Shown here: positions 16,049 through 40,719 of the stretch, piece after piece | Layout: every line of letters begins with the position of its first letter | How positions within the stretch are numbered: the first letter of the stretch is position 1 | Virus record (IMG/VR): IMGVR_UViG_3300042691_038938 | Length of the DNA: 64,000 nt | Source of the DNA: a virus | Taxonomy: Duplodnaviria > Caudoviricetes | Direction: 5' to 3' (one strand) | Translations under genes and position numbers: made by a program | The notes under the pieces: generated by a model | Databases searched by the model: none | What the model was told of the DNA's origin: nothing | Seen by the model: the letters and a program-made list of their open reading frames with translations, nothing else

Positions 16049-17643
16049 TGAGTGAAATCACACTGGGCTTTGAGCCTCGCCCACAACAGGTTCAGATCCT
16101 GGACTTTGTGAAAGAATCCATCAAGGATAAGAAAAAATTCATCATGATTGACGCTCCCACTGGAGTAGGCAAGTCATATGCGGCCATCATGATCGCGGAC
16201 TGGTACCGAAAGGAAATCACCAAAAAGGCCAAGGTAGACATAGTCACAAATACTAAGATCTTACAGGATCAGTATATTAAAGACTTTGAGTTTGCTGCAA
16301 ACCTAAAGGGTAAGAACAATTATTGGTGTCGTCGTCAGGGTATGGGCTGCGGAGATGCACAGATCATAAATAAAGCAAACGAGAACAAGTGCGAGCCCTG
16401 TCCACACAGGATGGCCCAGTCCAAGTTTCTACGCAGCCCCTTGAGTCTCACTAACTTTCACCTCATCACTACCTACTCGATGTACTCGCCTGAGATGATG
16501 ATCCAACGCAAGTCTAGGTTACTCATAATCGACGAGGCACACGCCTTTGAGGAGACCTATTGTGACTTCATCTCTTCAGTCTATTCTGAACGTAGCATCA
16601 GGTTACTAGACGTCTGGAGAGACTGGATGGAAAAGGACTTAGATGGAATCACCTCTCTCAACGAGCTTTCAGAGTGGACTAGAACAGTCCTGGTTCCATT
16701 ACTCGCACAGAAGGCTGAAGAGTTACTAAGCGAGGCTAAGGAAACTCGAATAAAGAAGAAAAAGATAGACTTGATCAAGAAAGCCGACCATGTCGACAAG
16801 TCGATGTGTAAGTATAACAGGTTCGTCAATGATAAGGAAAACTACAAGACTAACTGGACTTTTGAAAAGGACTTAGATCAGCATGGCAAGACTAGAATCT
16901 TAGTCGAACCTATCTGGGGAAACATCTACCTAAAGGACATGTTTTGGAACCAGTACGATCATGTGATATTCATGTCAGGTACGCTACTTGATAGGGAACT
17001 TATCTCATTCATCATGGGAGTCAATGAAGAAGAATCATCTTACATGGCTCTTCCATGTCCGTTCAAGGCTGAGAAGAGACCTGTGATCTACTTAAAATTC
17101 GGCAAGATGTCCTATTACCATAAGAAAGAGACCTTTGCTAGAGCAGTGCCGGTGATCTCTAGGATACTTGAGAAAAACCATGAGGTAAAGGGAATCATCC
17201 ACACTGCAAACTACGAGTTTAGTAACTGGATCAAGGCCTCAATCAAGGACAAACGACTCATATTTCACGACTCGGCCACTAGAGAGAAGTCATTAGAGAA
17301 TCACCTTACTTCCAAGTTAGAGACTGTCCTAGTCTCTCCGTCAATGATAAATGGAGTCGACTTGAAGGATGAACTCTCCCGTTTTCAGGTGATCCTAAAG
17401 GTTCCCTTTCCTAACCTAGTGAGCACCAAGATCAAGAAGAGGCTTGAATCCAAGCCAGAATGGTACAATTGGAAGACTCTAGTCGACCTCTTACAGGCAT
17501 ATGGTAGATCAATTAGAAACGACGAGGACTGGGCAGAAACGTTCATCTTAGACGAATGCTTCGATCAGGTGTTAAATAATAAAACGGTGCCCAAATATTT
17601 TTTAGAGGCACTAAAAATTAAAAAGCTAGGAAACAAGGCATGA
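16048..17643 (+). CDS. DinG/Rad3-family SF2 helicase
   Basis: Q motif PRPQQ, DAPTGVGKS, Cys cluster, DEAH, SGT, SPSMINGVDL, QAYGRSIR. Confidence 0.9.
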   Translation: MSEITLGFEPRPQQVQILDFVKESIKDKKKFIMIDAPTGVGKSYAAIMIADWYRKEITKKAKVDIVTNTKILQDQYIKDFEFAANLKGKNNYWCRRQGMGCGDAQIINKANENKCEPCPHRMAQSKFLRSPLSLTNFHLITTYSMYSPEMMIQRKSRLLIIDEAHAFEETYCDFISSVYSERSIRLLDVWRDWMEKDLDGITSLNELSEWTRTVLVPLLAQKAEELLSEAKETRIKKKKIDLIKKADHVDKSMCKYNRFVNDKENYKTNWTFEKDLDQHGKTRILVEPIWGNIYLKDMFWNQYDHVIFMSGTLLDRELISFIMGVNEEESSYMALPCPFKAEKRPVIYLKFGKMSYYHKKETFARAVPVISRILEKNHEVKGIIHTANYEFSNWIKASIKDKRLIFHDSATREKSLENHLTSKLETVLVSPSMINGVDLKDELSRFQVILKVPFPNLVSTKIKKRLESKPEWYNWKTLVDLLQAYGRSIRNDEDWAETFILDECFDQVLNNKTVPKYFLEALKIKKLGNKA

Positions 17644-18815
17644 AATACTTAAGAATAAGTTATCCACAGCTTAGAACAGAGGTCTTGTCTGGGCTTACTA
17701 TCTCAACTGCGCTGGTTCCTGAAGCAATCTCATTTGCTCTACTCATTGGAGTGTCTCCAACTGCTGGTATATGGGCAGCCTTCTTCATGGCATTATCCAC
17801 TTCCCTTTTTGGAGGCAGGCCTGCCATAATAAGCGGTGCGACTGGCGCGACTGCAGTCATACTAGCGGCCCTTGTTTCTCTTCATGGAGAAGATAATCTA
17901 TACCTTGCTGTGATTTTAGCTGGAGTGATCCAGTTAATCTTGTGGATTAGCGGAGGTTGGAAAGTATTCAAGACGGTTCCTAAGATCGTAATTTCCGGAT
18001 TCCTAATTTCACTATCGATACTAATACTTCAAAGTCAATTCAAGTATTTTAAGATAGGTGGACTTTCGAGTATCCAACAGGTAATAATGGTAGGGATAGT
18101 TGTAGTATCAGCCGGCTCAATGTATGTTTCCAGTAAAAGATTCAAATTTCCTCCAGCAATCGCCGCAATATTGATGGGATCAGTTCTTAGTTCTTTCTTT
18201 GCTCTTCCTCTAATACAGGATCTTTCTGCTATATCAAATCGTTTACCTGAATTAGTCACTCCATCAGTTTCATTAGAGTCTTTATTACTAGTCTTGCCGT
18301 ATTCATTAGGTATGGCAATTTCCGGTCTTACTGAATCTCTAATCGCAGTAGATGAAGTCTGTCATAAACTAGGAACCCCAAAGGGAAAAGATCCAAAGTC
18401 TAAAGAAACCTTTGCTCAAGGCATAGGTAATATAGTGAGCGGCTTTTTTACTTCAATTGGAGGCTGTGTCCTCGTAGGTCAGACTAATTTAAACGTCGCA
18501 GCTGGCGCAAAATATCGAGTATCATCCCTAATTGCGAGCCTAGGTCTCTTATTGATCATACTCATTTTTGGAAAGTATATTCAGCTAATTCCTTTAGCTG
18601 GACTCATAGGAGTAATGATAATTGTAGTCTATGAAACTGGCGATTGGTCAAAACTTAAGGATAAAAATAGAGTAAATATAGCAACTCTTATCGTGACGAT
18701 AGCCGCTTCGCTAATCACTCACAATCTTGCGGTAGGAGTCTTGTTTGGAAGTATCACATACTACGCAATAAAAAAGTTAGTAAAGAATAATGGCAAAGAA
18801 AAAGATCGAGGATAA
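17640..18815 (+). CDS. SulP/SLC26-family anion (sulfate) permease lacking a STAS domain
   Basis: LSGLTISTALVPEAISFA, GGRPAIISGATGA, ETFAQGIGNIVSGFF, GGCVLVGQT; many hydrophobic segments. Confidence 0.88.
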   Translation: MKYLRISYPQLRTEVLSGLTISTALVPEAISFALLIGVSPTAGIWAAFFMALSTSLFGGRPAIISGATGATAVILAALVSLHGEDNLYLAVILAGVIQLILWISGGWKVFKTVPKIVISGFLISLSILILQSQFKYFKIGGLSSIQQVIMVGIVVVSAGSMYVSSKRFKFPPAIAAILMGSVLSSFFALPLIQDLSAISNRLPELVTPSVSLESLLLVLPYSLGMAISGLTESLIAVDEVCHKLGTPKGKDPKSKETFAQGIGNIVSGFFTSIGGCVLVGQTNLNVAAGAKYRVSSLIASLGLLLIILIFGKYIQLIPLAGLIGVMIIVVYETGDWSKLKDKNRVNIATLIVTIAASLITHNLAVGVLFGSITYYAIKKLVKNNGKEKDRG

Positions 18816-29461: not shown

Positions 29462-29489
29462 AAACCTAGTGTTCTCTATATTGTATAAC
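29462..29489 (+). promoter_or_regulatory. putative promoter AAACCT-N16-TATAAC driving the glycan cluster
   Basis: Two-box motif 18 nt upstream of ATG 29508. Confidence 0.5.
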
Positions 29490-29507
29490 AAAAAAAGAAA
29501 AAGTTTC

Positions 29508-30122
29508 ATGTCTCTAATTAAGACGTTAAAGGAATTCGCTGGCATACATACTGGAAAAAAGATAATAGTTTGCGGCTGCGGAGTCTCGCTAGTAGATTTT
29601 AAGGAACATCACCAAGATTTCATAACGATTGGGGTGAATGACGTTAGTGAGCTATTCGATCCCACATATCTACTAGTCACTGATCATTCAGGAAGGTTCA
29701 GCTCTGATAGGAGACGAAGAGTTCACGGAACCAATGCAAAATACGTGTTTACTTGTGCTAAGGGTTGGTATCACAAAAACCTAGTCCATTTTGAATTAGG
29801 AAGCAGGTCCCTTACTAACCTTGACCATCCTGATAGAATAGATCATTACATGAATTCTCCGTATGCTGCTGCGATCCTTGCCTACAAGATGGGAGCGAAG
29901 AATATCGGCCTGATTGGAGTCGATTTTACAGATGGCCATTTCTATAATCTAAAGGACGGTAAACATCCTATAGTGAAATCAAACTACCTTAACAAAGTGA
30001 ATTCAGCCTATCAGACTCTTAGCAGCGAGCTTGCTAAGAGAGGCACAACGCTAGTCAACCTAAGTCCAATCAGCAACCTCGCAATACGAAAAATAAGCTT
30101 GGAGGAGTTTAAAAAGATATGA
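29508..30122 (+). CDS. MptE/Maf (DUF115)-like protein, candidate nonulosonate transferase
   Basis: IIVCGCGVSL, TIGVN, AAILAYKMGAKNIGLIGVDF, LVNLS; typical DUF115 pattern (IiG.GpSL...LaY.MG.k.I.LiG.D). Confidence 0.65.
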   Translation: MSLIKTLKEFAGIHTGKKIIVCGCGVSLVDFKEHHQDFITIGVNDVSELFDPTYLLVTDHSGRFSSDRRRRVHGTNAKYVFTCAKGWYHKNLVHFELGSRSLTNLDHPDRIDHYMNSPYAAAILAYKMGAKNIGLIGVDFTDGHFYNLKDGKHPIVKSNYLNKVNSAYQTLSSELAKRGTTLVNLSPISNLAIRKISLEEFKKI

Positions 30123-30748
30123 AGATAATAATACCCGCTCGAATGGGATCCAAGGGTCTTCCATTTAAGAATAGAACGTTGTTTAAGTACACGGCAGAAT
30201 CGATTCCTAATGAATTAAGAGGAGACACATTCGTCACGACGGACGATTCAGATATCATGATAATGGCTAGAGCTCATGGTTTCAATGTCATCGACCGACC
30301 CTTTTGCCTTGCTCAAGATACAACTTCCACTAAAGATGTCTTGATCCATGCACTGGGTGAAATTAATCCCGATCCTTACGAGGATGTCATTGTTCTCTAT
30401 CTTACTTATCCTCAGCGTTCCTGGAAAGACGTTAAGTCTGCTATGGAGTACGCCGATTCACTAGATTTCAGCGTTAACTCTCTACTCTGTAAAAAGGAAT
30501 GCCCGAGCCCATACTTGATGATGTTTGAGAAGGGACCATTTGGTACCCAAGTCATCCCACACGACCTATATCGACGCCAAGACTATCCTTCCTGTTTTGA
30601 GATAAGTCACTTTGTCATAATCTTTAAGGCGCATTACATAAATAACTTAAATAGTAATCTGTATTCTGAAACTACTGTTTTCTATGGAATAGACGATGTA
30701 GTTGACGTTGACTTACAGAGAGACCTAAATCAATTTTATGAAAATTAA
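30119..30748 (+). CDS. acylneuraminate/nonulosonate cytidylyltransferase (NeuA-like)
   Basis: IIIPARMGSKGLPFKN, VTTDD, IDRP..LAQD, LYLTYPQR, DVD. Confidence 0.9.
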   Translation: MKIIIPARMGSKGLPFKNRTLFKYTAESIPNELRGDTFVTTDDSDIMIMARAHGFNVIDRPFCLAQDTTSTKDVLIHALGEINPDPYEDVIVLYLTYPQRSWKDVKSAMEYADSLDFSVNSLLCKKECPSPYLMMFEKGPFGTQVIPHDLYRRQDYPSCFEISHFVIIFKAHYINNLNSNLYSETTVFYGIDDVVDVDLQRDLNQFYEN

Positions 30749-32447
30749 CTTAGCAATAGACTGTCTAGAAGGATATGAATTTAATGCTATTACCTCAATA
30801 CATTCATTCCTGAATACTAACAAATGGTTTGATGGTAAGATATACATAATAGTGCCCAAGCATTCTGTGATTACTTCTAGAATCTCTTCGGAAATTCTAT
30901 CAATCTATGAGAATTTTGAGATAGTCAATGCTCAAGAAGATTTGAATTTTTCAAATGAATTAAGTAAAGCCTCTTCTGACTTAACAAAGATTCAAACTAT
31001 TCTTTCAATCAAAAGCCTTTACATTAAAGAGGAACGTGTCCTATTCATTTCAAGTGGGTGTCTCATCTTCAAGGACTTGAGTAAATTACTAGGCACCAAC
31101 GAAGTAACGCTGATTAGCAATCCATCAGCAGAAATAGACTTTTCTGTATTCTATCGAAATAAGATAGCTAATTCTTCTCTATCAATCTCTCAATTACTCA
31201 ATCAGGTTTTTACTGATCGTAATTCAATACTTTCCCTGTTTCAAACTAACCAAAAGATCACAACTGTTTTGGGAGAAACTTCTTCTAGTTTTAATGATAG
31301 GGTCTTTCTAAAGAAGAAATCAGTCTTAAATCTTCTTAATTTCATTAAATATGACACATTAAGAGGAGAATCTAGGAACTATTCTAAGATAAACTATATT
31401 TGGATTCAGCATCAAAAGGTAGTCAAAAACATCCTAAAAAGACCGGCATCCTTCAAAGGAAAGAGGACTTTAAATAAAAGTCTCTCCCCTAAACTTGATG
31501 GACTACTTAATTCTCCACAGGCTCAGCCAACTCAAAATAAGAACATCCAGTCGGCCACAAAGGAAGTAAATCTAAATAAGGCGAGAAGTCTCTTAAGAGT
31601 CAGGGAAACGGATAAGAGATACTTACTTAATGAGAAGAAAAAAGCAGAGAGTCTTTCTCAATATCATGAAACTGTCTCACAATATTCTGAGACTCCTCCT
31701 CGACACGATTATGCTACTGCTTGTGTGATAGCATTTTTAGATCGGCATGAGATGGTTGAACTTAATGTCAAGCTTCTAAGCCAACAAAGTTTGGTACCTG
31801 CGATAGTCCTAGTTGCTTCAAATCCAACAGATGCTGCATTTGCTAATGGGTTAATTGAAAGATATCCTAACGTGTTCGTCACCTACTATCAAAATTATCC
31901 AATAGGCGGAAAGTGGAGAGCCGGGGTAAAGTATGCACAGCGTCTGAACGTTAGAGGACTGATGATACTCGGATCAGATGATCTACTATCACTAGATTAC
32001 TTTAAGAAGTGTTACTCAATGATTGATCGCGGTAACGGATCGAGCGGGACTGGCGTGGACCTGGTCGGCAATCGTAGCTGGTTTATATACGATACCTCAC
32101 GGAAGCTCTACAATCTTTCTTACTTGCCTAGCGTGAAAATATTTTTAGGCGGAGGAAAGATGTTCTCTAAGAACTTTTTAGATGCAGTTGACTGGGAGAT
32201 ATTTAAACCACTACGACCAGTTCACCTGGACGAGTATGGATATGAATTGATTGAAGCATTTAGTAATTCAATGTCTCTAATATCTCAAGATAATTTTATT
32301 TTAAGTATAAAAGGAAGCTGGGAAGTCATTAATTCAACTGATGCTATACTTAAAGCTAGGAATCGAATAAGAGTAATTGATGTTACGACACGGCTCTCTA
32401 CAATACTCAATAATCTTAAAATAGATCGTAAAGAAATTGAAATATGA
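30738..32447 (+). CDS. two-domain glycosyltransferase-like protein
   Basis: N-terminal GT8-like start (A.TSIHSFL..N); C-terminal GT-A region with GGKWRAG and ILGSDDLL. Confidence 0.6.
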   Translation: MKINLAIDCLEGYEFNAITSIHSFLNTNKWFDGKIYIIVPKHSVITSRISSEILSIYENFEIVNAQEDLNFSNELSKASSDLTKIQTILSIKSLYIKEERVLFISSGCLIFKDLSKLLGTNEVTLISNPSAEIDFSVFYRNKIANSSLSISQLLNQVFTDRNSILSLFQTNQKITTVLGETSSSFNDRVFLKKKSVLNLLNFIKYDTLRGESRNYSKINYIWIQHQKVVKNILKRPASFKGKRTLNKSLSPKLDGLLNSPQAQPTQNKNIQSATKEVNLNKARSLLRVRETDKRYLLNEKKKAESLSQYHETVSQYSETPPRHDYATACVIAFLDRHEMVELNVKLLSQQSLVPAIVLVASNPTDAAFANGLIERYPNVFVTYYQNYPIGGKWRAGVKYAQRLNVRGLMILGSDDLLSLDYFKKCYSMIDRGNGSSGTGVDLVGNRSWFIYDTSRKLYNLSYLPSVKIFLGGGKMFSKNFLDAVDWEIFKPLRPVHLDEYGYELIEAFSNSMSLISQDNFILSIKGSWEVINSTDAILKARNRIRVIDVTTRLSTILNNLKIDRKEIEI

Positions 32448-33349
32448 TAACTTTAAGAAACGTAATAGCGTACCTATCTGAAAAAATGGATCTTGAAATA
32501 ATTTATGGAAATGTTGGTGAAGATCAATCGATCTCTAAAATAATAAAATTTGATCCGGCAAACCTGGACAATTCAATTCTTTTTTGGATAAGTGAAAAGA
32601 ACCTTCCACAGACAAGGGATCTTGTTACTGGGACTTTGATAGCTCCACGATCAATCGCTCGTCCTAATAATTTTAATGGAACTCTATTGATTTGTGAAAA
32701 TCCTAGAAAGGCATTTAGCTTAATAATTAACGAATTCTTCAAGCCTAGCAATAATTTGATTCCAATTGGTTCTTTAGTCACGATCATGTCAAATGTCCCA
32801 AAAAGCTCTAAAGTAGGAAAAGGGACAATTATTGAAAAAGGGGTGACAATCGGTGAAAACGTAGTCATTGGATACAATAATGTCATTCTATCAGGAACAG
32901 TCATTGGAGATAACGTTAAGGTAGGTTCGAACAACACGATAGGAGCGGTCGGCTTTGGTTACGAAAGGGGAGAGAATGGAGAATATGAACTGATTTCTCA
33001 CATAGGAAACGTTGTAATTGAGGATGACGTTGAGATAGGAAACAATAATTGCATTGATAGAGCGGTTCTTGGATCAACCCTTCTCTGTAAAAATTCCAAG
33101 ATAGATAACCTAGTTCATATCGCACATGGAGTAAAGATAGGAAGAAATTCTCTAGTCATCGCAAATTCCATGATTGCTGGAAGCTCTGAGATAGGCGATG
33201 ACGTATGGATCGCGCCCTCAACTTCTGTGATAAACGGTAAAACTGTGGGATCAAGATCGATGACTGGCTTAGGTTCAGTCGTGATTTCAAACGTGGATGA
33301 AGGCTCATTAGTGGTCGGAGTCCCAGCAAAAAAGATAAAAGACATATAA
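32444..33349 (+). CDS. LpxD-like hexapeptide-repeat acyltransferase
   Basis: Left-handed beta-helix repeats; IG.VGFG, HIGNVVIEDDVEIGNNNCIDRA, KIDNLVHIAHG. Confidence 0.85.
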   Translation: MITLRNVIAYLSEKMDLEIIYGNVGEDQSISKIIKFDPANLDNSILFWISEKNLPQTRDLVTGTLIAPRSIARPNNFNGTLLICENPRKAFSLIINEFFKPSNNLIPIGSLVTIMSNVPKSSKVGKGTIIEKGVTIGENVVIGYNNVILSGTVIGDNVKVGSNNTIGAVGFGYERGENGEYELISHIGNVVIEDDVEIGNNNCIDRAVLGSTLLCKNSKIDNLVHIAHGVKIGRNSLVIANSMIAGSSEIGDDVWIAPSTSVINGKTVGSRSMTGLGSVVISNVDEGSLVVGVPAKKIKDI

Positions 33350-35109
33350 TGTGCGGAATAAGCGGAATAATTTTTAAAGAGCATTGCACTGACTTCACTC
33401 AAGCTAGACTCGAATTGGAACACATGAAATCCTCACAGCATCTGAGAGGACCTGATTCTTCTGGTGAGTTTAATGATACTAAAGTATTTTTAGCTCATAA
33501 TAGACTTTCGATACTTGATCTTAGTCCAGCAGGAAATCAGCCCATGCAAAATGAGGATTGGGTGATAGTCTTTAACGGGGAGATCTATAATTATGTGGAA
33601 CTAAGAGACGAGCTCATAGGATTAGGTGAGACCTTTATCGGTTCTTCTGATACTGAGGTTCTCTTGACCTGTATATCTAGGTTTGGAATCCAGGAAGCAC
33701 TACAAAAGATAAACGGTATCTTCTCATTTTGTGCATACAATAAATACACAAAGGAGGTTCATCTAGTTAGGGACAGACTCGGCGAGAAGCCTCTTTTTTA
33801 CTACGTGGATGAGAATTCGACCCTTTACTTTTCATCGAATCCTTCAGCGATAGTGAATTCATTACCTCAAGTAGACTGGCATCTTGATTACGAAGGACTA
33901 TGGGAATATTTTGTCCTCGGAGGAATTTTTTCCGATAAGACTCTATTCAAAGGGATCAATCGACTTGATTCTGCTTCCGTCTTAAGCTATGTTAATAACG
34001 AAATAACTATATCTAAGTATTGGACACCAGTATTTCAGCCTAATTTGACTGATTCTGATCTTGACTCGCTAATCAGAGAAGCGATAACGAGCCGAACAGT
34101 CTCAGACGTCCCAATTGTTCTGTTCTTAAGTGGAGGAGTTGACTCCAGTGCAGTTGCTGCTGTGCTTAAAGACACTGATGCAGTTCACCTGATATCAGAT
34201 GAGGTTGATTCTGCGAGAAAGGTCGCTGAAAAATTCAAAATGAGATTCAAAGTAGTCCAACCGGCGAGTTTAGACATCTCGGAAACGTTATTCAAGTATT
34301 CTGAATTTTCAGGAGAGGCAACGATGGCAGGATTCATTCCTTATGTGACAAGCAAAGCAATTTCTGGTGAATATAAGGTGGCAATAAGCGCGAATGGAGC
34401 AGATGAACTGTTTTTTGGATATCTTAGAATTCCCACACCAAAAATAAAAAATGAATTCTTTGATAAGTTAAGCAAAAGACGAAACATCAACATAAATCGT
34501 CGGTCAAGTCAGCCAGATGGACAGATTGCTGAAATCTTTAGACACCCTGACAATTTTTCTATTCCTCTTTCAGGAAAAGTTAGTTCAATGGCTGATCTAT
34601 TGAGATTGATTGAGCTAGAATTAAAGGATTTCAACCAAAATGAAGACTTTCCACAGTCTTCAAAATACAGATGGCTCGAACTAATGACCTACGTAAAGGG
34701 CGATCTTAATAACACTCTAGATTTTGCAAGCATGGCAAACTCCTTAGAGGTAAGGGCTCCTTTCTTAGATTATCGACTAGTTGAGGCCGCTTTAAGCTTG
34801 GATGAGACTCGACACATTAATATCAAAAATGGAAGAAAACACTTTTTAAAGAAGATCTTAGATTCTGAAGGAGTCGATGAATCGATTTGGAATAGGGATA
34901 AACTGGGATTTAGTCTCATTTCTTCCTATTTCAATAGCATAGAATCGATCAAAGACTTAGCAGTAAAGGAGCTCAAAAGAGAAGGGTTTTTGTCTATTTC
35001 ATGTACTAAAGGTAATTTAGGAAGAGACCTTCAATACTTAAGAAGTTCTGCCTTGGGATTTTTAGCTTGGAAAAAGGCGTGGATCGACAACGGAAAAGTA
35101 AAAAAATAA
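33349..35109 (+). CDS. asparagine synthase (glutamine-hydrolysing)-like amidotransferase
   Basis: MCGI, RGPD, HNRLSILDL, FNGEIYNY, RDRLGEKPL, LSGGVDSS, GADELFFGY, SLEVRAPFLD. Confidence 0.93.
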   Translation: MCGISGIIFKEHCTDFTQARLELEHMKSSQHLRGPDSSGEFNDTKVFLAHNRLSILDLSPAGNQPMQNEDWVIVFNGEIYNYVELRDELIGLGETFIGSSDTEVLLTCISRFGIQEALQKINGIFSFCAYNKYTKEVHLVRDRLGEKPLFYYVDENSTLYFSSNPSAIVNSLPQVDWHLDYEGLWEYFVLGGIFSDKTLFKGINRLDSASVLSYVNNEITISKYWTPVFQPNLTDSDLDSLIREAITSRTVSDVPIVLFLSGGVDSSAVAAVLKDTDAVHLISDEVDSARKVAEKFKMRFKVVQPASLDISETLFKYSEFSGEATMAGFIPYVTSKAISGEYKVAISANGADELFFGYLRIPTPKIKNEFFDKLSKRRNININRRSSQPDGQIAEIFRHPDNFSIPLSGKVSSMADLLRLIELELKDFNQNEDFPQSSKYRWLELMTYVKGDLNNTLDFASMANSLEVRAPFLDYRLVEAALSLDETRHINIKNGRKHFLKKILDSEGVDESIWNRDKLGFSLISSYFNSIESIKDLAVKELKREGFLSISCTKGNLGRDLQYLRSSALGFLAWKKAWIDNGKVKK

Positions 35110-35115
35110 GAATCG

Positions 35116-35739
35116 ATGACAGTATTAATATTATCTCCACACACGGATGATGCTGAGCTCGGTTGCGGAGGAACGATATCGCGTCTCATTGAGGAAGGTC
35201 ACTCAGTATGGGTTGCAATATTCTCAACCTGTGATGAGTCGCTTCCTCCTGGATTTTCTCCAGGGACCTTAAAAACTGAGAGCATAAATTCGTTAGTCTC
35301 ATTGGGTTTAAATAAGGATCAAATCATCCATTATGACTATCAAGTTAGAGTCTTTAACTACAGTAGACAGTCAATATTAGAAGATCTAGTACAGTTAAAG
35401 AAGAAGATGTTGCCTGATCTTGTATTCATTCCTTCACTAGATGATTATCATCAAGATCATAAGACCGTTGCTGAGGAAGGAGTTAGGTGTTTCAAAAACG
35501 GCTGCTCAATCCTTTCTTATGAATTGATATGGAACAACACTGGATTTAAGAATCAGCTTTACTATGTCTTAGAGGAAAGGCATATCAAGAACAAAATAAA
35601 AGCTCTTAAGAATTATGAAACGCAACAAGGAAGATCATATCTCTCTGAAGAATTTATTCGCTCCTTAGCTAAGGTTCGGGGAATACAAAATGGCGTAGAT
35701 CTGGCTGAAGCATATGAAGTCATACGATATAAAATATAA
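35116..35739 (+). CDS. PIG-L/LmbE-family deacetylase
   Basis: SPHTDDAELGCGG and HQDH motifs. Confidence 0.9.
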   Translation: MTVLILSPHTDDAELGCGGTISRLIEEGHSVWVAIFSTCDESLPPGFSPGTLKTESINSLVSLGLNKDQIIHYDYQVRVFNYSRQSILEDLVQLKKKMLPDLVFIPSLDDYHQDHKTVAEEGVRCFKNGCSILSYELIWNNTGFKNQLYYVLEERHIKNKIKALKNYETQQGRSYLSEEFIRSLAKVRGIQNGVDLAEAYEVIRYKI

Positions 35740-35748
35740 TACATACAA

Positions 35749-36495
35749 ATGCAATCATTATCTAAATTTACCAATTCACCTATTATTATTGGAGGCTGTG
35801 GCAGATCTGGAACAACTCTTCTTGCTGCAATTCTTTCATCTCATCCAAGTATCTATTCATATACTTACGAAACTATGGCATTCTGTCCCAGTGCATGGAT
35901 GGATCCCTTAAATAGAAACGTTCCATTTAGTCTTTCCATTCTAGAGGAAGTACTCATTGACTCTCCTCCAAGTAAAGAGAACAATAGATTTTTAGAAAAG
36001 ACCCCTAGAAATACCCTTGTCTATAAAAGAATAGCCGACTATTTTAATGATCAAGTTAAGATCATAAATCTTGTAAGAGACGGTCGAGATGTTGTTCTAT
36101 CGAAGTATCCAGGAAAGGAAGACACACAATACGTAACTGCTGACTTTTGGAAAACTGAAATTGAGTATGGGATTGAGTGTGAAGATTTTCCATGGTTTAA
36201 AACATTTAGATATGAAGATTTAATTCTTAATTTTAAGGAAACTCTTCTCGATATCTGTGAATTTTGTGAGATTGAATACTGTGATCAATTGACTAACTAC
36301 ACTGACTTTACAAAATATAAAGAATCTGATGCTTGGAGCCATCGTAAAATTCAAAGCCCTCATCAAAAGTCAATTGGAAAATGGAAGAATCACATGGATC
36401 ATATTGAAGTAAAAAAGTTGAATTCAGACCCACACAATATTGATTTATTAAAAAAATATAACTATGAAATTATTAGTGATTGTTCCAGCATATAA
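35749..36495 (+). CDS. sulfotransferase (PAPS-dependent, Sulfotransfer_3-like)
   Basis: GCGRSGTTLL 5'-PSB loop, EKTP, VRDGRDV 3'-PB motif, RYEDL. Confidence 0.88.
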   Translation: MQSLSKFTNSPIIIGGCGRSGTTLLAAILSSHPSIYSYTYETMAFCPSAWMDPLNRNVPFSLSILEEVLIDSPPSKENNRFLEKTPRNTLVYKRIADYFNDQVKIINLVRDGRDVVLSKYPGKEDTQYVTADFWKTEIEYGIECEDFPWFKTFRYEDLILNFKETLLDICEFCEIEYCDQLTNYTDFTKYKESDAWSHRKIQSPHQKSIGKWKNHMDHIEVKKLNSDPHNIDLLKKYNYEIISDCSSI

Positions 36496-37150
36496 CGCTC
36501 AGTCTTTTATAAAGGAGAGTATTTCTTCGATATTATCGCAAAATATTTTAATTCAAGTTGTTGTGATAGACGACGGATCAATCGATAAAACAGTTTCTCA
36601 AATTCCTAAAAATTCAAACATCAATGTGATACGAAACCTCAAAAACATGGGAACGTATTATTCAATTAATCGAGCTCTAGTTTCCTCAGCTTCCGATCCT
36701 TCATGGACCCACTTTACCGTTCATGGAGCAGACGATGTTTCCCTTCCTGGAAGATTTAAAGCACAGCTTTCTAAATTTTCAAACGGAATCTTAGCAGTCG
36801 GCTGTGGTTACAATAGAGTTGACCACTCAACTGGGAAAGTAATGAGTACTACCTTGAAGACTGATGAATCAGTTCTAATTTTTTCAAGAAAGGTTTTTGA
36901 ATCCATTGGATACTATGCGACTCACAGAGTAGGAAGCGATACTGAATACAAGAAGCGCCTCTTACTATGTCATCCAAAATCCATTTCGACAGTTCCTAGG
37001 GTACTAATAAAATCCTATTTACATGGAGAAAACTTGACTAAAAAAATACCGCTCGGTGGATCAGTTAGAAAGAAGGTAGTAGAGTCATTTACCTCGAGTC
37101 ACAGAGAAATGGTTAAAACTAAAAATTATTATCAGAAATTCAATCCATGA
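36464..37150 (+). CDS. glycosyltransferase family 2
   Basis: VIVPAYN, VIDDGSID, NMGTYYSIN, GADD, SDTEY. Confidence 0.88.
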   Translation: MKLLVIVPAYNAQSFIKESISSILSQNILIQVVVIDDGSIDKTVSQIPKNSNINVIRNLKNMGTYYSINRALVSSASDPSWTHFTVHGADDVSLPGRFKAQLSKFSNGILAVGCGYNRVDHSTGKVMSTTLKTDESVLIFSRKVFESIGYYATHRVGSDTEYKKRLLLCHPKSISTVPRVLIKSYLHGENLTKKIPLGGSVRKKVVESFTSSHREMVKTKNYYQKFNP

Positions 37151-37974
37151 AATTAGGAGTAGCATACATAGTGTTCGACGGGATAGAGCTTCTTGAACAT
37201 TCAATAAGACAGATACGCCCTCACGTTGATCACATCAACGTGATCTATCAAAATCATTCATGGTTTGGCACTCCCATCTCAAAGGAAGATTTAATCAAGC
37301 TCAAGTCTCTAACGTCGGCTCGACTTATAGATGAGCTCACACTATTTAACGACTTTTCTCCCATTCGAGTCAAGAATCATCAGGGAATAATGAAGGCAAA
37401 GGGATACGAGCGAACCAAGCGACAGTTGGGTCTAAGTATCACTCTTAATCGTGGGTGCACTCATTATCTTTGCATGGACGTTGATGAATTCTACAAGTCA
37501 GAAGAATTTGCTAAGGCTAAGTCTGAGATAATCAGCAAAGGATATGACCAGACCGCCGTTAGACTCATCAATTACGTCAACGTTCCTATCGTTCATCGAG
37601 GATATGATTCCATCAGGGTTCCTTTCATCTGTAGGATAGACCGTTCGACTAAGATGACTCCTTCATTCTTCGTTAAGTGTGATCCTACTAGGGGACTTAC
37701 TAGCGCAAGTAAGAATAAACATGAATTCGCTCCAAGCATTATCACAATGCATCACATGGAAACAGTAAGAAAGAATCTGACCCTAAAGTATGACTCTACC
37801 ACTCGAGCAGTATTTGCTCGCGCTAGAACTTCTGAGCTAGTTGATAGTATTAAGAATGTAAACGAGAAAAGTTCTAATTTCAGTTTTAAGAAGATAATAT
37901 TTCCTGGACTGAATTCGATAAAACTGATTCAGTGTGAGAACATATTTAATATACCTTATCAAAAATGGAAATAA
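37147..37974 (+). CDS. GT-A fold glycosyltransferase-like protein
   Basis: LGVAYIVFDG start, CMDVDEFY DxD motif, MHHM. Confidence 0.65.
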   Translation: MKLGVAYIVFDGIELLEHSIRQIRPHVDHINVIYQNHSWFGTPISKEDLIKLKSLTSARLIDELTLFNDFSPIRVKNHQGIMKAKGYERTKRQLGLSITLNRGCTHYLCMDVDEFYKSEEFAKAKSEIISKGYDQTAVRLINYVNVPIVHRGYDSIRVPFICRIDRSTKMTPSFFVKCDPTRGLTSASKNKHEFAPSIITMHHMETVRKNLTLKYDSTTRAVFARARTSELVDSIKNVNEKSSNFSFKKIIFPGLNSIKLIQCENIFNIPYQKWK

Positions 37975-37983
37975 TTTTAAGAA

Positions 37984-38667
37984 ATGTCTAAAATAGCTTT
38001 GGAATTTACAACAACTGCCTGTAATCGGCCTTCAGTATTAAACGCAACATATGCATCATATTGTAAGAATCTTACAGGCATAGACTTTTCAAAAAGCACA
38101 GTATATTTGAATGTTGATCCTGCGCCTGATTCTAAAAATATTCAAATGGTAGAGGAAGTTGCAAGGAAATATTTCGGCACAGTTATTGTTAATTATTCAT
38201 CTTCTCCTAATTTTGCAGCAGCGGCTCTTTGGTGTTTTTCTCAAGTAAAGGGTGAATTTTTTTTTCATTTGGAAGACGATTGGAAACTTATGAAGGCTAT
38301 TAACATCCATTCGATGATCTCAAAACTAGGAACATCTAATTTACAGTGTGTATTAAATAAGGGAAGGACTTCAATTACAATAAAGGAGACTGGTGAACCA
38401 TGTTTTGTTCCTTCTCTAATCGCAACGCAATATTGGAAAAAATATCTAACTAACTTTAGACTTGATATTAATCCTGAATATCAAATGAAAGTTCTTTTTA
38501 AAAATAAGTCGACTGGTTTATTTAAAAATCGCTCAATTTATTATAATCCGGCTCAAGAGCTTTCAAAAGATATTGGTCGATCATGGTTAATGGCAAATAA
38601 ACTAGCTAGAAGTTATACTCCGGGAGCAAAATGGTCTCCTTGGATAAAATGGAGAAATAAAAAATGA
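37984..38667 (+). CDS. GT-A fold glycosyltransferase-like protein
   Basis: TTACNRP, LNVD, FFHLEDDW motif. Confidence 0.65.
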   Translation: MSKIALEFTTTACNRPSVLNATYASYCKNLTGIDFSKSTVYLNVDPAPDSKNIQMVEEVARKYFGTVIVNYSSSPNFAAAALWCFSQVKGEFFFHLEDDWKLMKAINIHSMISKLGTSNLQCVLNKGRTSITIKETGEPCFVPSLIATQYWKKYLTNFRLDINPEYQMKVLFKNKSTGLFKNRSIYYNPAQELSKDIGRSWLMANKLARSYTPGAKWSPWIKWRNKK

Positions 38668-39548
38668 AAACACTAATCATTGCTGAGATCGGAATTAATT
38701 ATGCATATGGTGAGTCTCAATCTCTCTTTATGGATAATATAAAGAGACTTATCGACGTAGCGAAAGTTTCTGGTGTAGATTACGTTAAGTTTCAAAAACG
38801 CAATCCTGAATCTTGCGTTCCTCAAAATGAGAGAGATAAACCTAAAAGGGTTCCTTGGAGAAAAGAAGAGACTACCTATCTGCATTATAAAAAAGACATT
38901 GAGCTTTGGCAAAAGGAATTTGATGAGATCGACGATTACTGTCGAGAAAAGGAGATAGGCTGGTTCGCGTCAGTCTGGGACAAGGATTCAGTGGATTTCA
39001 TGAGAAGATACACAAGTCCTTTACCGAACGGCAAGTGGGGAATCATGCTTAAGATACCATCTGCGTTAATCACGGATCTTAGCCTAGTACAATACGCTAA
39101 AGAGTGTTCAGATTTTCTTCTCATCTCTACTGGCATGAGCAGGCAGAGTGAGATCGATCTTGCTATCGAGACAGGCGAGCCAGATGTAGTGTTCCATACA
39201 AATTCAACCTACCCTTCTCCAGTATCAGAGCTAAAATTAGATTACATACCATATCTCAATCACATCTCAATTGAATTTAAGAAGAAGTTTGAAGTAGGGT
39301 ATTCCGGTCATGAGTTTGGGCTAAACACCACTCTTGCTGCTAATCTTTTGGGCGCAAGGTGGATTGAACGACACATAACATTAGACCGAACTCACTGGGG
39401 TAGCGATCAGATGGCCTCAGTTGAACCGCAAGGCTTGATTAAATTGGTAAAGAGCATTAGAGACATTGAGCTCTCCAGGGGAGGATATGGCGCTAGAGAA
39501 GTCCTAGCCTCAGAAAAAGAAAAAAGAAAAACACTTAGAGGAAAATGA
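38664..39548 (+). CDS. N-acylneuraminate/nonulosonate synthase (NeuB-like, no antifreeze-like domain)
   Basis: IIAEIGIN, VKFQKR, KIPSA, ISTGMS, HTNSTYP, GYSGHE, ERHITLDR, GSDQ.AS.EP. Confidence 0.92.
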   Translation: MKTLIIAEIGINYAYGESQSLFMDNIKRLIDVAKVSGVDYVKFQKRNPESCVPQNERDKPKRVPWRKEETTYLHYKKDIELWQKEFDEIDDYCREKEIGWFASVWDKDSVDFMRRYTSPLPNGKWGIMLKIPSALITDLSLVQYAKECSDFLLISTGMSRQSEIDLAIETGEPDVVFHTNSTYPSPVSELKLDYIPYLNHISIEFKKKFEVGYSGHEFGLNTTLAANLLGARWIERHITLDRTHWGSDQMASVEPQGLIKLVKSIRDIELSRGGYGAREVLASEKEKRKTLRGK

Positions 39549-39844
39549 AGATAACTCCAAAAAAGATCCTTCAGTTCTTTGAAGGCAACATCAAGATGTT
39601 GGGAGACATGTTTTATCTCCTACCTGAACATGAAAAAGAACAAGTATTCTTTAGATCTCAGATCTGTAAGGAAGAGTGTGTGAAGCTAGGATATTGCGTT
39701 TACTGCGGTTGCGACGTCCCGGGAAAGCTGTATGTAAAAGAGTCTTGTAATGGAGGAGAAAGATTTCCTGATCTCATGTCAAAGAAGGACTGGGAAGAGT
39801 ATAAAAAGGAAAATAACATTGAGGTAAATGATCTATTACATTGA
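39545..39844 (+). CDS. small Cys-rich protein
   Basis: C-x3-C...CVYCGC...C; inside the glycan operon. Confidence 0.65.
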   Translation: MKITPKKILQFFEGNIKMLGDMFYLLPEHEKEQVFFRSQICKEECVKLGYCVYCGCDVPGKLYVKESCNGGERFPDLMSKKDWEEYKKENNIEVNDLLH

Positions 39845-40127
39845 CATTGACGACACGATATGTACTCTATCTGAGTCCATGAACTATGGATCAGCTACAC
39901 CCATTCCAAAAGCCATTGAGAAGGTGAATCGTCTCTATGAAGAAGGCCATCGCATCGTCTTCTGGACTGCTAGAGGGACTGTTAGTGGCAAGGATTGGAG
40001 ACAGTTAACTGAGAGTCAACTCATCTCTTGGGAAGTAAAATATCATGAGCTCAAATTCGGTAAACCTGCATACGATTTCTTCATAGACGATAAAAACATC
40101 AATTCGAATGATTGGCTCAGCAAGTAA
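39828..40127 (+). CDS. minimal HAD phosphatase
   Basis: DIDDTI motif I, WTARG motif II, GKP..D.FIDDK motifs III/IV. Confidence 0.88.
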   Translation: MIYYIDIDDTICTLSESMNYGSATPIPKAIEKVNRLYEEGHRIVFWTARGTVSGKDWRQLTESQLISWEVKYHELKFGKPAYDFFIDDKNINSNDWLSK

Positions 40128-40719
40128 CGTAAAGGTACTTGTCCTAGGCAACGATCCTCAGATCAACACCATTGATTTTGACAGATTGAAGCCTGAAGTG
40201 ATCACACTGGGCGTGAATAGGATCTGGTTGAAACACATACCTGACTATCTTTTTTTCAATGATATTCAGATCTTGACTGAGATTGAAAGACATCCTGAAA
40301 TAATGGCTCAACTTCAATCTAATACTAAGTGTTTTTCTAGTGATTGGATTAGGCATAAATTAAAAAGAACCATTCCTCAATGGATAGAAATACACCGACG
40401 AACCAACGCGATCTCTTTTCCAGACTCTGTAAGTACTGCAATAAATATCTTTTCATCTAATTTTTTAACTGATAAGCGGGTGACTTATTACCTTGCTGGA
40501 GTTTCCCTAAAATGGACTAATCCTAGTCACTTTTGGAAGGAGATGGAATACGAATCATTGAATAAACACGGTCAAGATTGGTACACCACGCGATTTGTTA
40601 AAATGTCGGAAAACTTTAGAAAGATAAAGGCCAGAGGAATACGCGTAATCTCAGTGAATCCCAACTCCAATCTAAATAAGATGTTTCGTTATGAGAGCAT
40701 TGATAACCTTTATAAGTGA
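40108..40719 (+). CDS. second MptE/Maf (DUF115)-like protein
   Basis: VLVLGNDPQI, TLGVNRI, YYLAGVSL, VISVNPNS. Confidence 0.55.
   Translation: MIGSASNVKVLVLGNDPQINTIDFDRLKPEVITLGVNRIWLKHIPDYLFFNDIQILTEIERHPEIMAQLQSNTKCFSSDWIRHKLKRTIPQWIEIHRRTNAISFPDSVSTAINIFSSNFLTDKRVTYYLAGVSLKWTNPSHFWKEMEYESLNKHGQDWYTTRFVKMSENFRKIKARGIRVISVNPNSNLNKMFRYESIDNLYK

Follow-up and report, generated by a model that had tools for sequence, protein, structure and literature searches.

A predicted three-enzyme, phosphosugar-dependent route to a CMP-activated nonulosonate in a large phage

Introduction

Which nine-carbon acidic sugar might a phage make if it carries a NeuB-family synthase, a small HAD phosphatase and a NeuA-type CMP-nonulosonate synthetase, and no NeuC alongside them? 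The question is raised by a 64-kb stretch of DNA (hereafter the window) from IMG/VR record IMGVR_UViG_3300042691_038938, for which the original prediction, made from the sequence of the window, was a KDN-type route passing through a 9-phosphate. The source is a large freshwater T4-like phage.

A bacterial precedent exists. In the account of Wang et al. 2008 given in PMC6200933, Bacteroides thetaiotaomicron makes CMP-KDN with the KDN-9-P synthase BT1714, the KDN-9-P phosphatase BT1713 and a CMP-KDN synthetase. By pathway logic the phage module is similar, combining a NeuB-family synthase that would act on a sugar 6-phosphate with a cap-less (C0) HAD and a NeuA-type synthetase, without NeuC; it differs in its viral setting and in its phosphatase, which comes from another HAD lineage (phrog_1238, EcbF/BcbF, BT0820-like). 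A phosphorylated substrate, followed by dephosphorylation, is also characteristic of vertebrate NANS and NANP and of the Prymnesium parvum Kdn-9-P synthetase (PMC6200933).

Two sets served for comparison: 80 related phage loci, with NeuBs of 39-85% identity, and the 80 nearest cellular NeuBs (43-54%). A megablast search of GenBank phages with the operon gave no match, tblastn matched only two uncultured records and a search of the ESM Atlas added nothing; among uncultured phages the module is common.

Results and Discussion

The synthase

The synthase gene (38664..39548, + strand) encodes 294 amino acids that align to positions 1-237 of the 241 in PF03102 (E 1.8e-54; 185.2 bits against a cut-off of 22.1), placing the product in the NeuB family. 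The catalytic and metal-binding residue set of that family is present: E8, K42, Q44, K130, S133, S155, Y183, S214, H216, E235, H237 and D248 are common to the phage protein and canonical NeuBs. In its TIM-barrel family and its metal- and PEP-binding residues the enzyme thus resembles Neisseria meningitidis NeuB (PDB code 1xuz), Campylobacter jejuni PseI (8h2c) and LegI. In contrast to these, it falls far below the equivalog cut-offs, scoring 161.8 against 399.65 for the N-acetylneuraminate synthase model TIGR03569 (NeuB_NnaB; alignment over positions 1-276 of a 329-position model) and 119.3 against 340.25 for the pseudaminic acid synthase model TIGR03586 (PseI). Nor does it have the C-terminal antifreeze-like (SAF) domain, whose absence was correctly predicted: Pfam yields no SAF match in the protein, and a SAF profile derived from canonical NeuBs has zero matches in the 64-kb window or in the 80 related phage loci. 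In N. meningitidis NeuB the SAF domain supplies an arginine that contacts the N-acetyl group.

The phage enzyme further differs from the canonical ones in possessing extra invariant basic residues. K45 and R46, immediately after the K-x-Q substrate motif, are specific to its clade, in which positions 61 and 76 are invariably Lys or Arg; the counterparts of K45/R46, 61 and 76 in canonical enzymes are T/F, Y and L. From the alignment it is plausible that these clade-specific residues serve as phosphate ligands. Human NANS has KFQK and SGHE motifs too, which we do not use as evidence; NANS retains the antifreeze-like domain, and NANP, also a HAD, has a cap.

Cellular relatives and phylogeny

All 80 of the closest cellular NeuBs are likewise SAF-less, at ~290-310 amino acids, and in 73 of their loci a phosphatase of the KdsC/BT1713 type adjoins NeuB, fused to NeuA in 65 cases and separate in eight. 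PDB matches of this phosphatase domain include KdsC enzymes and 3e81, which we take to be BT1713, the KDN-9-P phosphatase of B. thetaiotaomicron. Stand-alone KdsC-type neighbours in Bacteroidia were considered as a more direct anchor to that organism and set aside: their best PDB match is 3e81, at a distance too great for orthology.

A phylogeny had been suggested as a check on the predicted route, and the maximum likelihood tree separates a SAF-less clade (57 phage plus cellular rows) from the SAF-bearing NeuBs with full support (UFBoot 100, SH-aLRT 100). This clade holds the phage NeuB together with the phosphatase-linked cellular NeuBs, including those of the Streptomyces Kdn-operon type. 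Genomic neighbourhoods divide in the same way, with a phosphatase near 74 of 81 cellular clade members versus 2 of 32 canonical NeuBs, and an Epimerase_2 gene near 1 of 81 versus 14 of 32. For an enzyme of the KDN-9-P synthase type (BT1714, P. parvum), which by definition takes mannose-6-phosphate and rejects free Man and ManNAc, one expects a phosphatase and a CMP-synthetase but no NeuC nearby; the surroundings of the phage NeuB in the window agree with this.

The Streptomyces loci, with a NeuE-like gene, NeuA/HAD and NeuB in that order, match SCO4879-4881 (PMC3479208), a cluster that has been assigned to a Kdn-containing teichulosonic acid (PMC13011467, PMC11481543). The single NeuB of a complete Streptomyces genome is of the operon type. 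The Streptomyces enzyme, SAF-less, ~44% identical to that of the phage and within the same strongly supported clade, is also paired with NeuA and a phosphatase; unlike the phage HAD, however, the Streptomyces phosphatase is of the KdsC type and forms one protein with NeuA, with a wall polymer as the product. Genetics and polymer chemistry point to this Streptomyces NeuB being a KDN-9-P synthase.

The phosphatase

The second gene after NeuB does encode a minimal HAD phosphatase, as originally read (39828..40127, + strand; phrog_1238, 5e-28). It is cap-less and 99 residues long and has all the catalytic motifs: motif I is DIDDT, motifs II-IV are present, and D6, D8, T10, T47, K79, D83 and D88 are 97-100% conserved among 70 homologues, as expected of the HAD superfamily. 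The protein lies outside the KdsC/BT1713 (YrbI, '8KDO') family, since a KdsC-type profile made from the domains of the cellular NeuA fusions matches none of the phage HADs. Weak NCBIfam matches to the EcbF/BcbF and BT0820 families and a match to PDB entry 9iqw, 'capsule biosynthesis protein' (2.9e-10), for which our literature search found no paper, indicate its affinities instead. The phage HAD would therefore be a non-orthologous replacement for the cellular phosphatase.

Linkage to NeuB is strong. The HAD accompanies NeuB in 70 of the 80 related viral loci, upstream or downstream and in several gene orders, the gap having a median of 283 bp and not exceeding 50 bp in 21 loci; these loci differ in genomic context, and the linkage is kept in the absence of other phosphosugar genes nearby. 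Several, not all, of the ten loci missing the HAD are short. At one locus (L046) a single ORF joins NeuA (E 2.5e-50) to a phage-type HAD (E 1.3e-48). Elsewhere, HAD homologues in other phages accompany a cupin isomerase, a PfkB sugar kinase and an epimerase, which suggests that the family acts in sugar-phosphate pathways. Since the HAD is not of the KdsC/BT1713 type, and since a search with the HAD itself recovered 60 viral loci of which ~40 lack a NeuB within 6 kb, it is from the linkage that we infer a nonulosonate 9-phosphate as its target.

NeuA and the candidate transferase

The position given for NeuA proved right. The gene (30119..30748, + strand) exceeds the PF02348 cut-off (26.0 bits against 22.6) and matches CMP-Neu5Ac synthetases in the PDB (8e-11; 6ifd and 1eyr at 1e-9 to 1e-10), while its score for the PseF equivalog is 40.9 against a cut-off of 205.7. 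A profile of the phage NeuAs matches the N-terminal halves of the cellular NeuA-phosphatase fusions at 1e-30 to 1e-48. Adjoining NeuA, here and in 13-21 related loci, is a gene for a DUF115/MptE-like protein (29469..30122, + strand), a candidate nonulosonate transferase with a weak match to PF01973 and one to phrog_4603, 'alpha-2,3-sialyltransferase' (1.7e-5).

Proposed pathway and alternatives

Taken together, these observations suggest a three-enzyme phosphosugar pathway by which the phage probably converts a hexose-6-phosphate of the host into CMP-KDN, a nine-carbon acidic sugar in activated form. The SAF-less NeuB would condense PEP with the hexose-6-phosphate, most likely mannose-6-phosphate, to a nonulosonate-9-phosphate (KDN-9-P); the cap-less HAD would strip the 9-phosphate; NeuA would then form CMP-KDN, and the neighbouring DUF115-like and other glycosyltransferases would transfer the sugar onto a glycan, perhaps on the virion or the infected cell surface. 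The 9-phosphate route as first put forward is thus favoured by the NeuB-HAD linkage, the NeuA-HAD fusion, the phosphatase-linked SAF-less relatives and the clade split. KDN is preferred as the product because of the Streptomyces Kdn link and the absence of any source of ManNAc.

That absence was part of the original prediction, which reported no UDP-GlcNAc 2-epimerase and no Pse/Leg dehydratase or aminotransferase. For this phage it holds over the 64-kb window, within a ~213-kb contig: tblastn with phage proteins detected no NeuC/WecB-like protein, Gmd-type dehydratase, DegT aminotransferase or UDP-sugar dehydrogenase there, and Pfam no sugar kinase, SIS isomerase or NanE in the whole operon. 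It extends to two near-complete jumbo phages that carry the module, G004 (100% complete) and G005 (97%), where NeuC, NanE and DegT are all lacking; NanE is also absent from four related phage genomes and from the complete, operon-bearing Streptomyces genome.

The pattern bears on whether NeuB might instead use an unphosphorylated sugar, ManNAc or a Leg/Pse precursor, provided by the host or by other phage genes, the HAD then belonging to another pathway or being a general sugar-phosphate phosphatase. Some relatives do seem to invite that reading: Epimerase_2 genes are found in nine related loci and dehydratase or aminotransferase genes in ~29, the HAD has homologues in the ~40 viral loci without NeuB, and such clusters bear the annotation neuA/neuB/neuC in a study of Lake Biwa phages (10.1101/655167). 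We considered these genes as a Leg/Pse-type supply and rejected the idea, however, since the bit scores of the Epimerase_2 genes fit non-hydrolysing WecB (229-310, cut-off 210) and not the NeuC model (57-69, cut-off 236), and the tested members of the dehydratase cluster are best matched by Gmd (one above cut-off) or are Fcl-like, resembling GDP-fucose synthase, the fourth being weak and non-specific. By these scores the WecB and Gmd/Fcl genes are predicted to feed other sugars. With the HAD tied to NeuB where no other phosphosugar gene is near, a NeuA-HAD fusion in existence and cellular relatives that pair with a phosphatase and not with NeuC, an unphosphorylated substrate is very unlikely.

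Within the 9-phosphate logic the substrate could differ. ManNAc-6-phosphate, formed by a host NanE from GlcNAc-6-P, would lead through Neu5Ac-9-P to CMP-Neu5Ac as in vertebrates, whose NANS and phosphatase use the same chemistry (PMC6200933). A putative ManNAc-6-P 2-epimerase, SCO4873, reported in the S. coelicolor cluster (PMC3479208) would fit such a route, and the PIG-L de-N-acetylase and N-acyltransferase of the phage operon could remodel the N-acetyl group. Against this, Kdn rather than Neu5Ac is what the Streptomyces polymer contains (PMC11481543). Genes for the deacetylase and acyltransferase turn up in just 4-7 of the 80 loci, hence outside the core, NanE is missing from the phage and Streptomyces genomes searched for it, and the phage enzyme lacks the very domain from which the N-acetyl-contacting arginine of N. 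meningitidis NeuB derives; we regard the Neu5Ac-9-P variant as unlikely. Condensation of PEP with some other host sugar phosphate, such as heptose-7-phosphate, to a longer or otherwise atypical ulosonic acid phosphate, which would in that case be dephosphorylated by the HAD, gains something from the heptose-like modules (isomerase, PfkB kinase, epimerase) in which HAD relatives occur. It seems highly improbable, given that neither the operon nor the recurrent neighbours of phage NeuB include a SIS/GmhA-type isomerase or sugar kinase, and that the nine-carbon Kdn of Streptomyces is the one product of known chemistry that can be tied to the clade.

If CMP-KDN is indeed made from a central metabolite by three small enzymes, this would explain how many phages have a self-sufficient nonulosonate pathway without NeuC. 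A second, unrelated phosphatase family would join the pathway. Current annotation, as in the Lake Biwa viromes (10.1101/655167), treats phage neuA and neuB as normal genes for sialic acid (Neu5Ac). More tentatively, and at somewhat under even chances in our estimation, the SAF-less NeuBs with an invariant K-F-Q-K-R motif may constitute a distinct and very large family of sugar-phosphate-dependent nonulosonate synthases, spread over Streptomyces, Chloroflexota, Planctomycetota, Bacteroidota and thousands of phages, for which the phages recruited an unrelated 100-residue HAD as dedicated 9-phosphatase. In that event many phages would be making sugars of the CMP-KDN type, hitherto overlooked, with which to decorate their virions or the surface of the infected cell. 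Absence of SAF, the KFQKR motif and a phosphatase neighbour are candidate sequence markers of such synthases. The enzymes are small and easily expressed; they could serve in the enzymatic synthesis of KDN glycans.

Other genes of the operon

Between NeuB and the HAD lies a gene for a 99-residue Cys-rich protein (39545..39844, + strand; phrog_13610, E 1.6e-19). It was considered as a detached or split SAF domain and rejected (hhalign probability 0.3); the gene occupies the same position in 34-35 related loci, and six Cys are conserved. Following the HAD, here and in 36 related loci, is a conserved 203-residue protein (40108..40719, + strand), possibly a second DUF115-like transferase: it has no Pfam or PDB match and is weakly similar to the N-terminus of the protein encoded at 29469-30122.

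The interval from NeuA to NeuB (30738..38667, + strand) is a variable cassette. Its Pfam and NCBIfam matches reveal an LpxD-like acyltransferase, an AsnB-type amidotransferase, a PIG-L deacetylase, a sulfotransferase and a GT2 glycosyltransferase, besides a 569-residue protein and two others of unknown type. Individual cassette genes are present in 0-18 of the 80 related loci and other cassettes take their place elsewhere; the cassette's likely role is in making or modifying further sugars of the glycan.

Organisation of the operon

The window, DNA of a T4-like phage, encodes a gp23-type capsid protein, a prohead protease, DnaB, topoisomerase II subunits and SbcCD-like proteins. Its plus-strand glycan operon (29469-40719), bordered at one end by DnaJ and the capsid genes and at the other by those of the baseplate, opens with a DUF115/MptE-like protein (29469-30122), followed by the CMP-nonulosonate synthetase NeuA (30119-30748), a 569-aa protein directly after it (30738-32447), an LpxD-like acyltransferase, an AsnB-type amidotransferase, a PIG-L deacetylase, a sulfotransferase (35749-36495), a GT2 glycosyltransferase and two further proteins. 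Then come the sialic-acid-type synthase NeuB (38664-39548; PF03102, E 1.8e-54), a Cys-rich 99-aa protein (39545-39844; phrog_13610), the HAD phosphatase (39828-40127) and, last, a 203-aa protein (40108-40719).

The original prediction had described a short NeuB without the C-terminal antifreeze-like (SAF) domain, a minimal HAD phosphatase two genes later and NeuA at 30119, with no UDP-GlcNAc 2-epimerase or Pse/Leg dehydratase or aminotransferase in the window, and each of these features was borne out. Of the 329 positions of the NeuB_NnaB model, the NeuB match reaches no further than 276; no SAF domain was found in the protein, and its scores lie far under both the Neu5Ac-synthase and PseI equivalog cut-offs. 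The HAD, of 99 aa, has all four catalytic motifs. Homologues of WecB/NeuC, Gmd-type dehydratases, DegT aminotransferases and UDP-sugar dehydrogenases were all absent from the 64-kb window, itself part of a contig of about 213 kb.

Several accessory proteins recur with the module. The phrog_13610 protein, which has six conserved cysteines and no Pfam match, occupies the same slot between NeuB and HAD in 34-35 related phage loci; the idea that it is a detached SAF domain was tested and ruled out. In 36 related loci the HAD is followed by the 203-aa protein, which weakly resembles the DUF115-like protein at its N-terminus and is a possible second nonulosonate transferase. The commonest accessory (42/80 loci) is a family of about 275 aa, again without a Pfam match, found in the window at 37147-37974 (+) and in relatives after NeuA, at the position of 30738-32447; two copies per locus are frequent, one adjoining NeuA and one adjoining NeuB. 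A SulP-family sulfate permease (17640-18815, +) lies about 17 kb from the sulfotransferase of the operon.

Linkage of the phosphatase to NeuB

A scan of IMG/VR yielded 80 loci, many of them short fragments, whose NeuBs are 39-85% identical to that of the window; in the protein database NeuB relatives number more than 8000. Of these viral loci, 70 have a homologue of the 99-aa HAD and 53 have NeuA. The HAD is mostly the next or next-but-one gene after NeuB (median gap 283 bp), being upstream in six loci, and the pairing is kept in contexts as varied as those adjoining baseplate genes, those adjoining PhoH and the 380-425-kb jumbo phages. Between NeuA and NeuB, genes are exchanged freely from locus to locus. 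In one phage locus (L046:2724-3725, +) a single 333-aa ORF carries NeuA at residues 2-219 (E 2.5e-50) and the phage-type HAD at residues 228-324 (E 1.3e-48), paralleling the bacterial NeuA-KdsC fusions, although the phosphatase is unrelated.

A control search with the HAD as query found about 40 viral loci (37-58% identity) without NeuB within 6 kb, where the neighbours are a cupin-type sugar-phosphate isomerase, a PfkB sugar kinase and an NAD-dependent epimerase, or else a phosphomannomutase-like gene. Given these neighbours, the group is predicted to consist of small phage sugar-phosphate phosphatases, with one branch dedicated to the NeuB module. The isomerase/PfkB/epimerase modules (L108-L119, e.g. 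L115:5642-7061), often with two HAD copies, look like a phage heptose-type nucleotide-sugar pathway.

Two loci (L036:12409-13143 and L075:11451-12203) have, right after NeuA, a second, very divergent and truncated NeuB-like ORF of 244-250 aa, whose branch in the tree is very long. The NeuA homologue of a 425-kb jumbo phage (L064:6435-8639) is 734 aa long and so has large extra domains.

A distinct clade of SAF-less synthases

The phylogeny covered 28 phage-type NeuBs (the window, 26 phage loci and a Flavobacteriales MAG, L145), 29 cellular clade members, 23 Bacteroidia NeuBs passing the NeuB_NnaB equivalog cut-off and further Bacteroidia NeuB-family genes, the characterised BT1714, NANS and P. 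parvum enzymes lying outside this sampling. The SAF-less phage and cellular sequences (57 rows) fall on one side of a branch, apart from canonical NeuBs, with SH-aLRT 100 in a quick tree and UFBoot 100/SH-aLRT 100 in a more careful one whose bootstrap was still short of full convergence. Nested within this group, 25 rows that include the window and L145 form a phage clade supported at 100/100.

Genomic neighbourhoods follow the same division. A phosphatase lies within 4 kb of 74/81 cellular and 64/78 phage members of the clade but of only 2/32 canonical NeuBs, whose loci had short flanks. Epimerase_2 is near 14/32 canonical NeuBs, even within the 1.5 kb of flank covered for them, and near 1/81 cellular clade members. 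Catalytic residues are common to both groups. Immediately after the K-x-Q motif the clade has invariant K45 and R46 where canonical enzymes have T and F, and SGHE is found in place of the canonical SDHT; positions 61 and 76 are always K/R in the clade. These clade-specific basic residues (K45, R46, 61 and 76) are predicted phosphate ligands.

Cellular relatives

Scanning of 185,579 species genomes gave, as the closest 80 cellular loci, 38 from Streptomyces, 17 from Chloroflexota, 7 from Bacteroidota, 5 from Planctomycetota and others. Their NeuBs share 43-54% identity with that of the phage, and all are about 290-310 aa long and without SAF. In 65 of the 80 a NeuA with a C-terminal HAD fusion lies just upstream of NeuB, and 8 more have a separate HAD. 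The fused HAD domain is of the KdsC/YrbI type, its PDB matches being 3mmz, KdsC enzymes and 3e81/3e84/3e8m; these last three entries are the KDN-9-P phosphatase BT1713 of B. thetaiotaomicron.

In Streptomyces the genes run DUF6716 (NeuE-like), NeuA/HAD, NeuB, as in SCO4879-SCO4881 (PMC3479208), and SCO4873-4882 is cited as the biosynthetic cluster of teichulosonic acid (PMC13011467), a Gal-Kdn polymer (PMC11481543). The proposed tie between the NeuB of Streptomyces and KDN-9-P synthesis draws on this published genetics and chemistry. In a complete Streptomyces genome of 10.3 Mb there is a single NeuB, of the SAF-less type, and no NanE. In L145 (5603-9149) a phage-type NeuB (54% identity) and small HAD stand right after a Wzz/tyrosine-kinase capsule gene, which suggests gene exchange with Flavobacteriales, or a host lineage among them. 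In L147 and L150 (Chloroflexota, Saprospirales) TagF-like (Glyphos_transf) proteins come after the NeuA/HAD-NeuB pair; they are possible polymerases of KDN-containing polymers beyond Streptomyces.

Precursor supply

Some related loci do have Epimerase_2, dehydratase and aminotransferase genes. Their first reading, as a Leg-type supply pathway, was contradicted by NCBIfam scores of the members tested: all four tested epimerases pass the cut-off of non-hydrolysing WecB (229-310 bits vs 210) and fail the NeuC model (57-69 bits vs 236). Among four dehydratase-cluster proteins tested, one is a GDP-mannose 4,6-dehydratase (462 bits vs 415), another falls just under that cut-off (404 bits), a third is GDP-fucose-synthase-like and the last gave weak, non-specific matches (top score LegB, 88 bits vs 475). 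Genes that also recur around the module encode GT2 and GT11 transferases, a methyltransferase, a pyruvyl transferase, a dioxygenase and MptE/CST-I-like proteins; sugar kinase, SIS isomerase and NanE are not among them.

The search for precursor genes beyond the window extended to whole records of five module-bearing phage genomes (G004, 100% complete; G005, 97%; G001, 81% and the closest long relative; G002 and G003). Epimerase_2 and DegT were found in G003 and neither was found in the other four; no NanE was found in G001, G003, G004 or G005. With the tested epimerases WecB, most tested dehydratase-cluster proteins of Gmd/GDP-fucose type and NanE missing from the four genomes searched for it, the variable cassettes probably feed other sugars of the glycan, and the NeuA, NeuB and HAD core would have to draw its sugar from the host.

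Proposed pathway and alternatives

As originally predicted, a three-enzyme route is the best reading, favoured comparatively by gene linkage, the fusions, the clade split and the phosphatase neighbours. NeuB would condense PEP with a host hexose-6-phosphate, the HAD would remove the terminal phosphate from the product, and NeuA would activate the result. We consider such a phosphosugar route quite probable. Good evidence that the pathway needs a phosphatase is that two different phosphatases took the same position and each is also fused to NeuA somewhere. A rival is that NeuB takes an unphosphorylated host sugar, leaving the HAD another job.

As to the product, we lean slightly towards KDN, on four grounds: Man-6-P is a universal metabolite, the window encodes no source of ManNAc or ManNAc-6-P, Kdn is the sole chemically known product linked to the clade, and in N. 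meningitidis NeuB it is the SAF domain, missing here, that contacts the N-acetyl group. Rivals that also fit a phosphosugar substrate are Neu5Ac-9-P made from ManNAc-6-P and a product of another sugar phosphate, such as heptose-7-P.

For the KDN route itself, B. thetaiotaomicron and Prymnesium are established cases (PMC6200933), and phage neuA/neuB clusters have been noticed before, annotated as Neu5Ac genes (10.1101/655167); a limited full-text literature search found no papers on the NeuB-HAD module of phages or on the clade of SAF-less NeuBs. B. thetaiotaomicron and Streptomyces use a KdsC-type phosphatase, whereas in the phages and one Flavobacteriales capsule locus an unrelated cap-less HAD appears to replace it, which is what is new here. 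No phage HAD was matched by the KdsC-domain profile, their nearest relatives being the EcbF/BcbF, BT0820 and 9iqw families.
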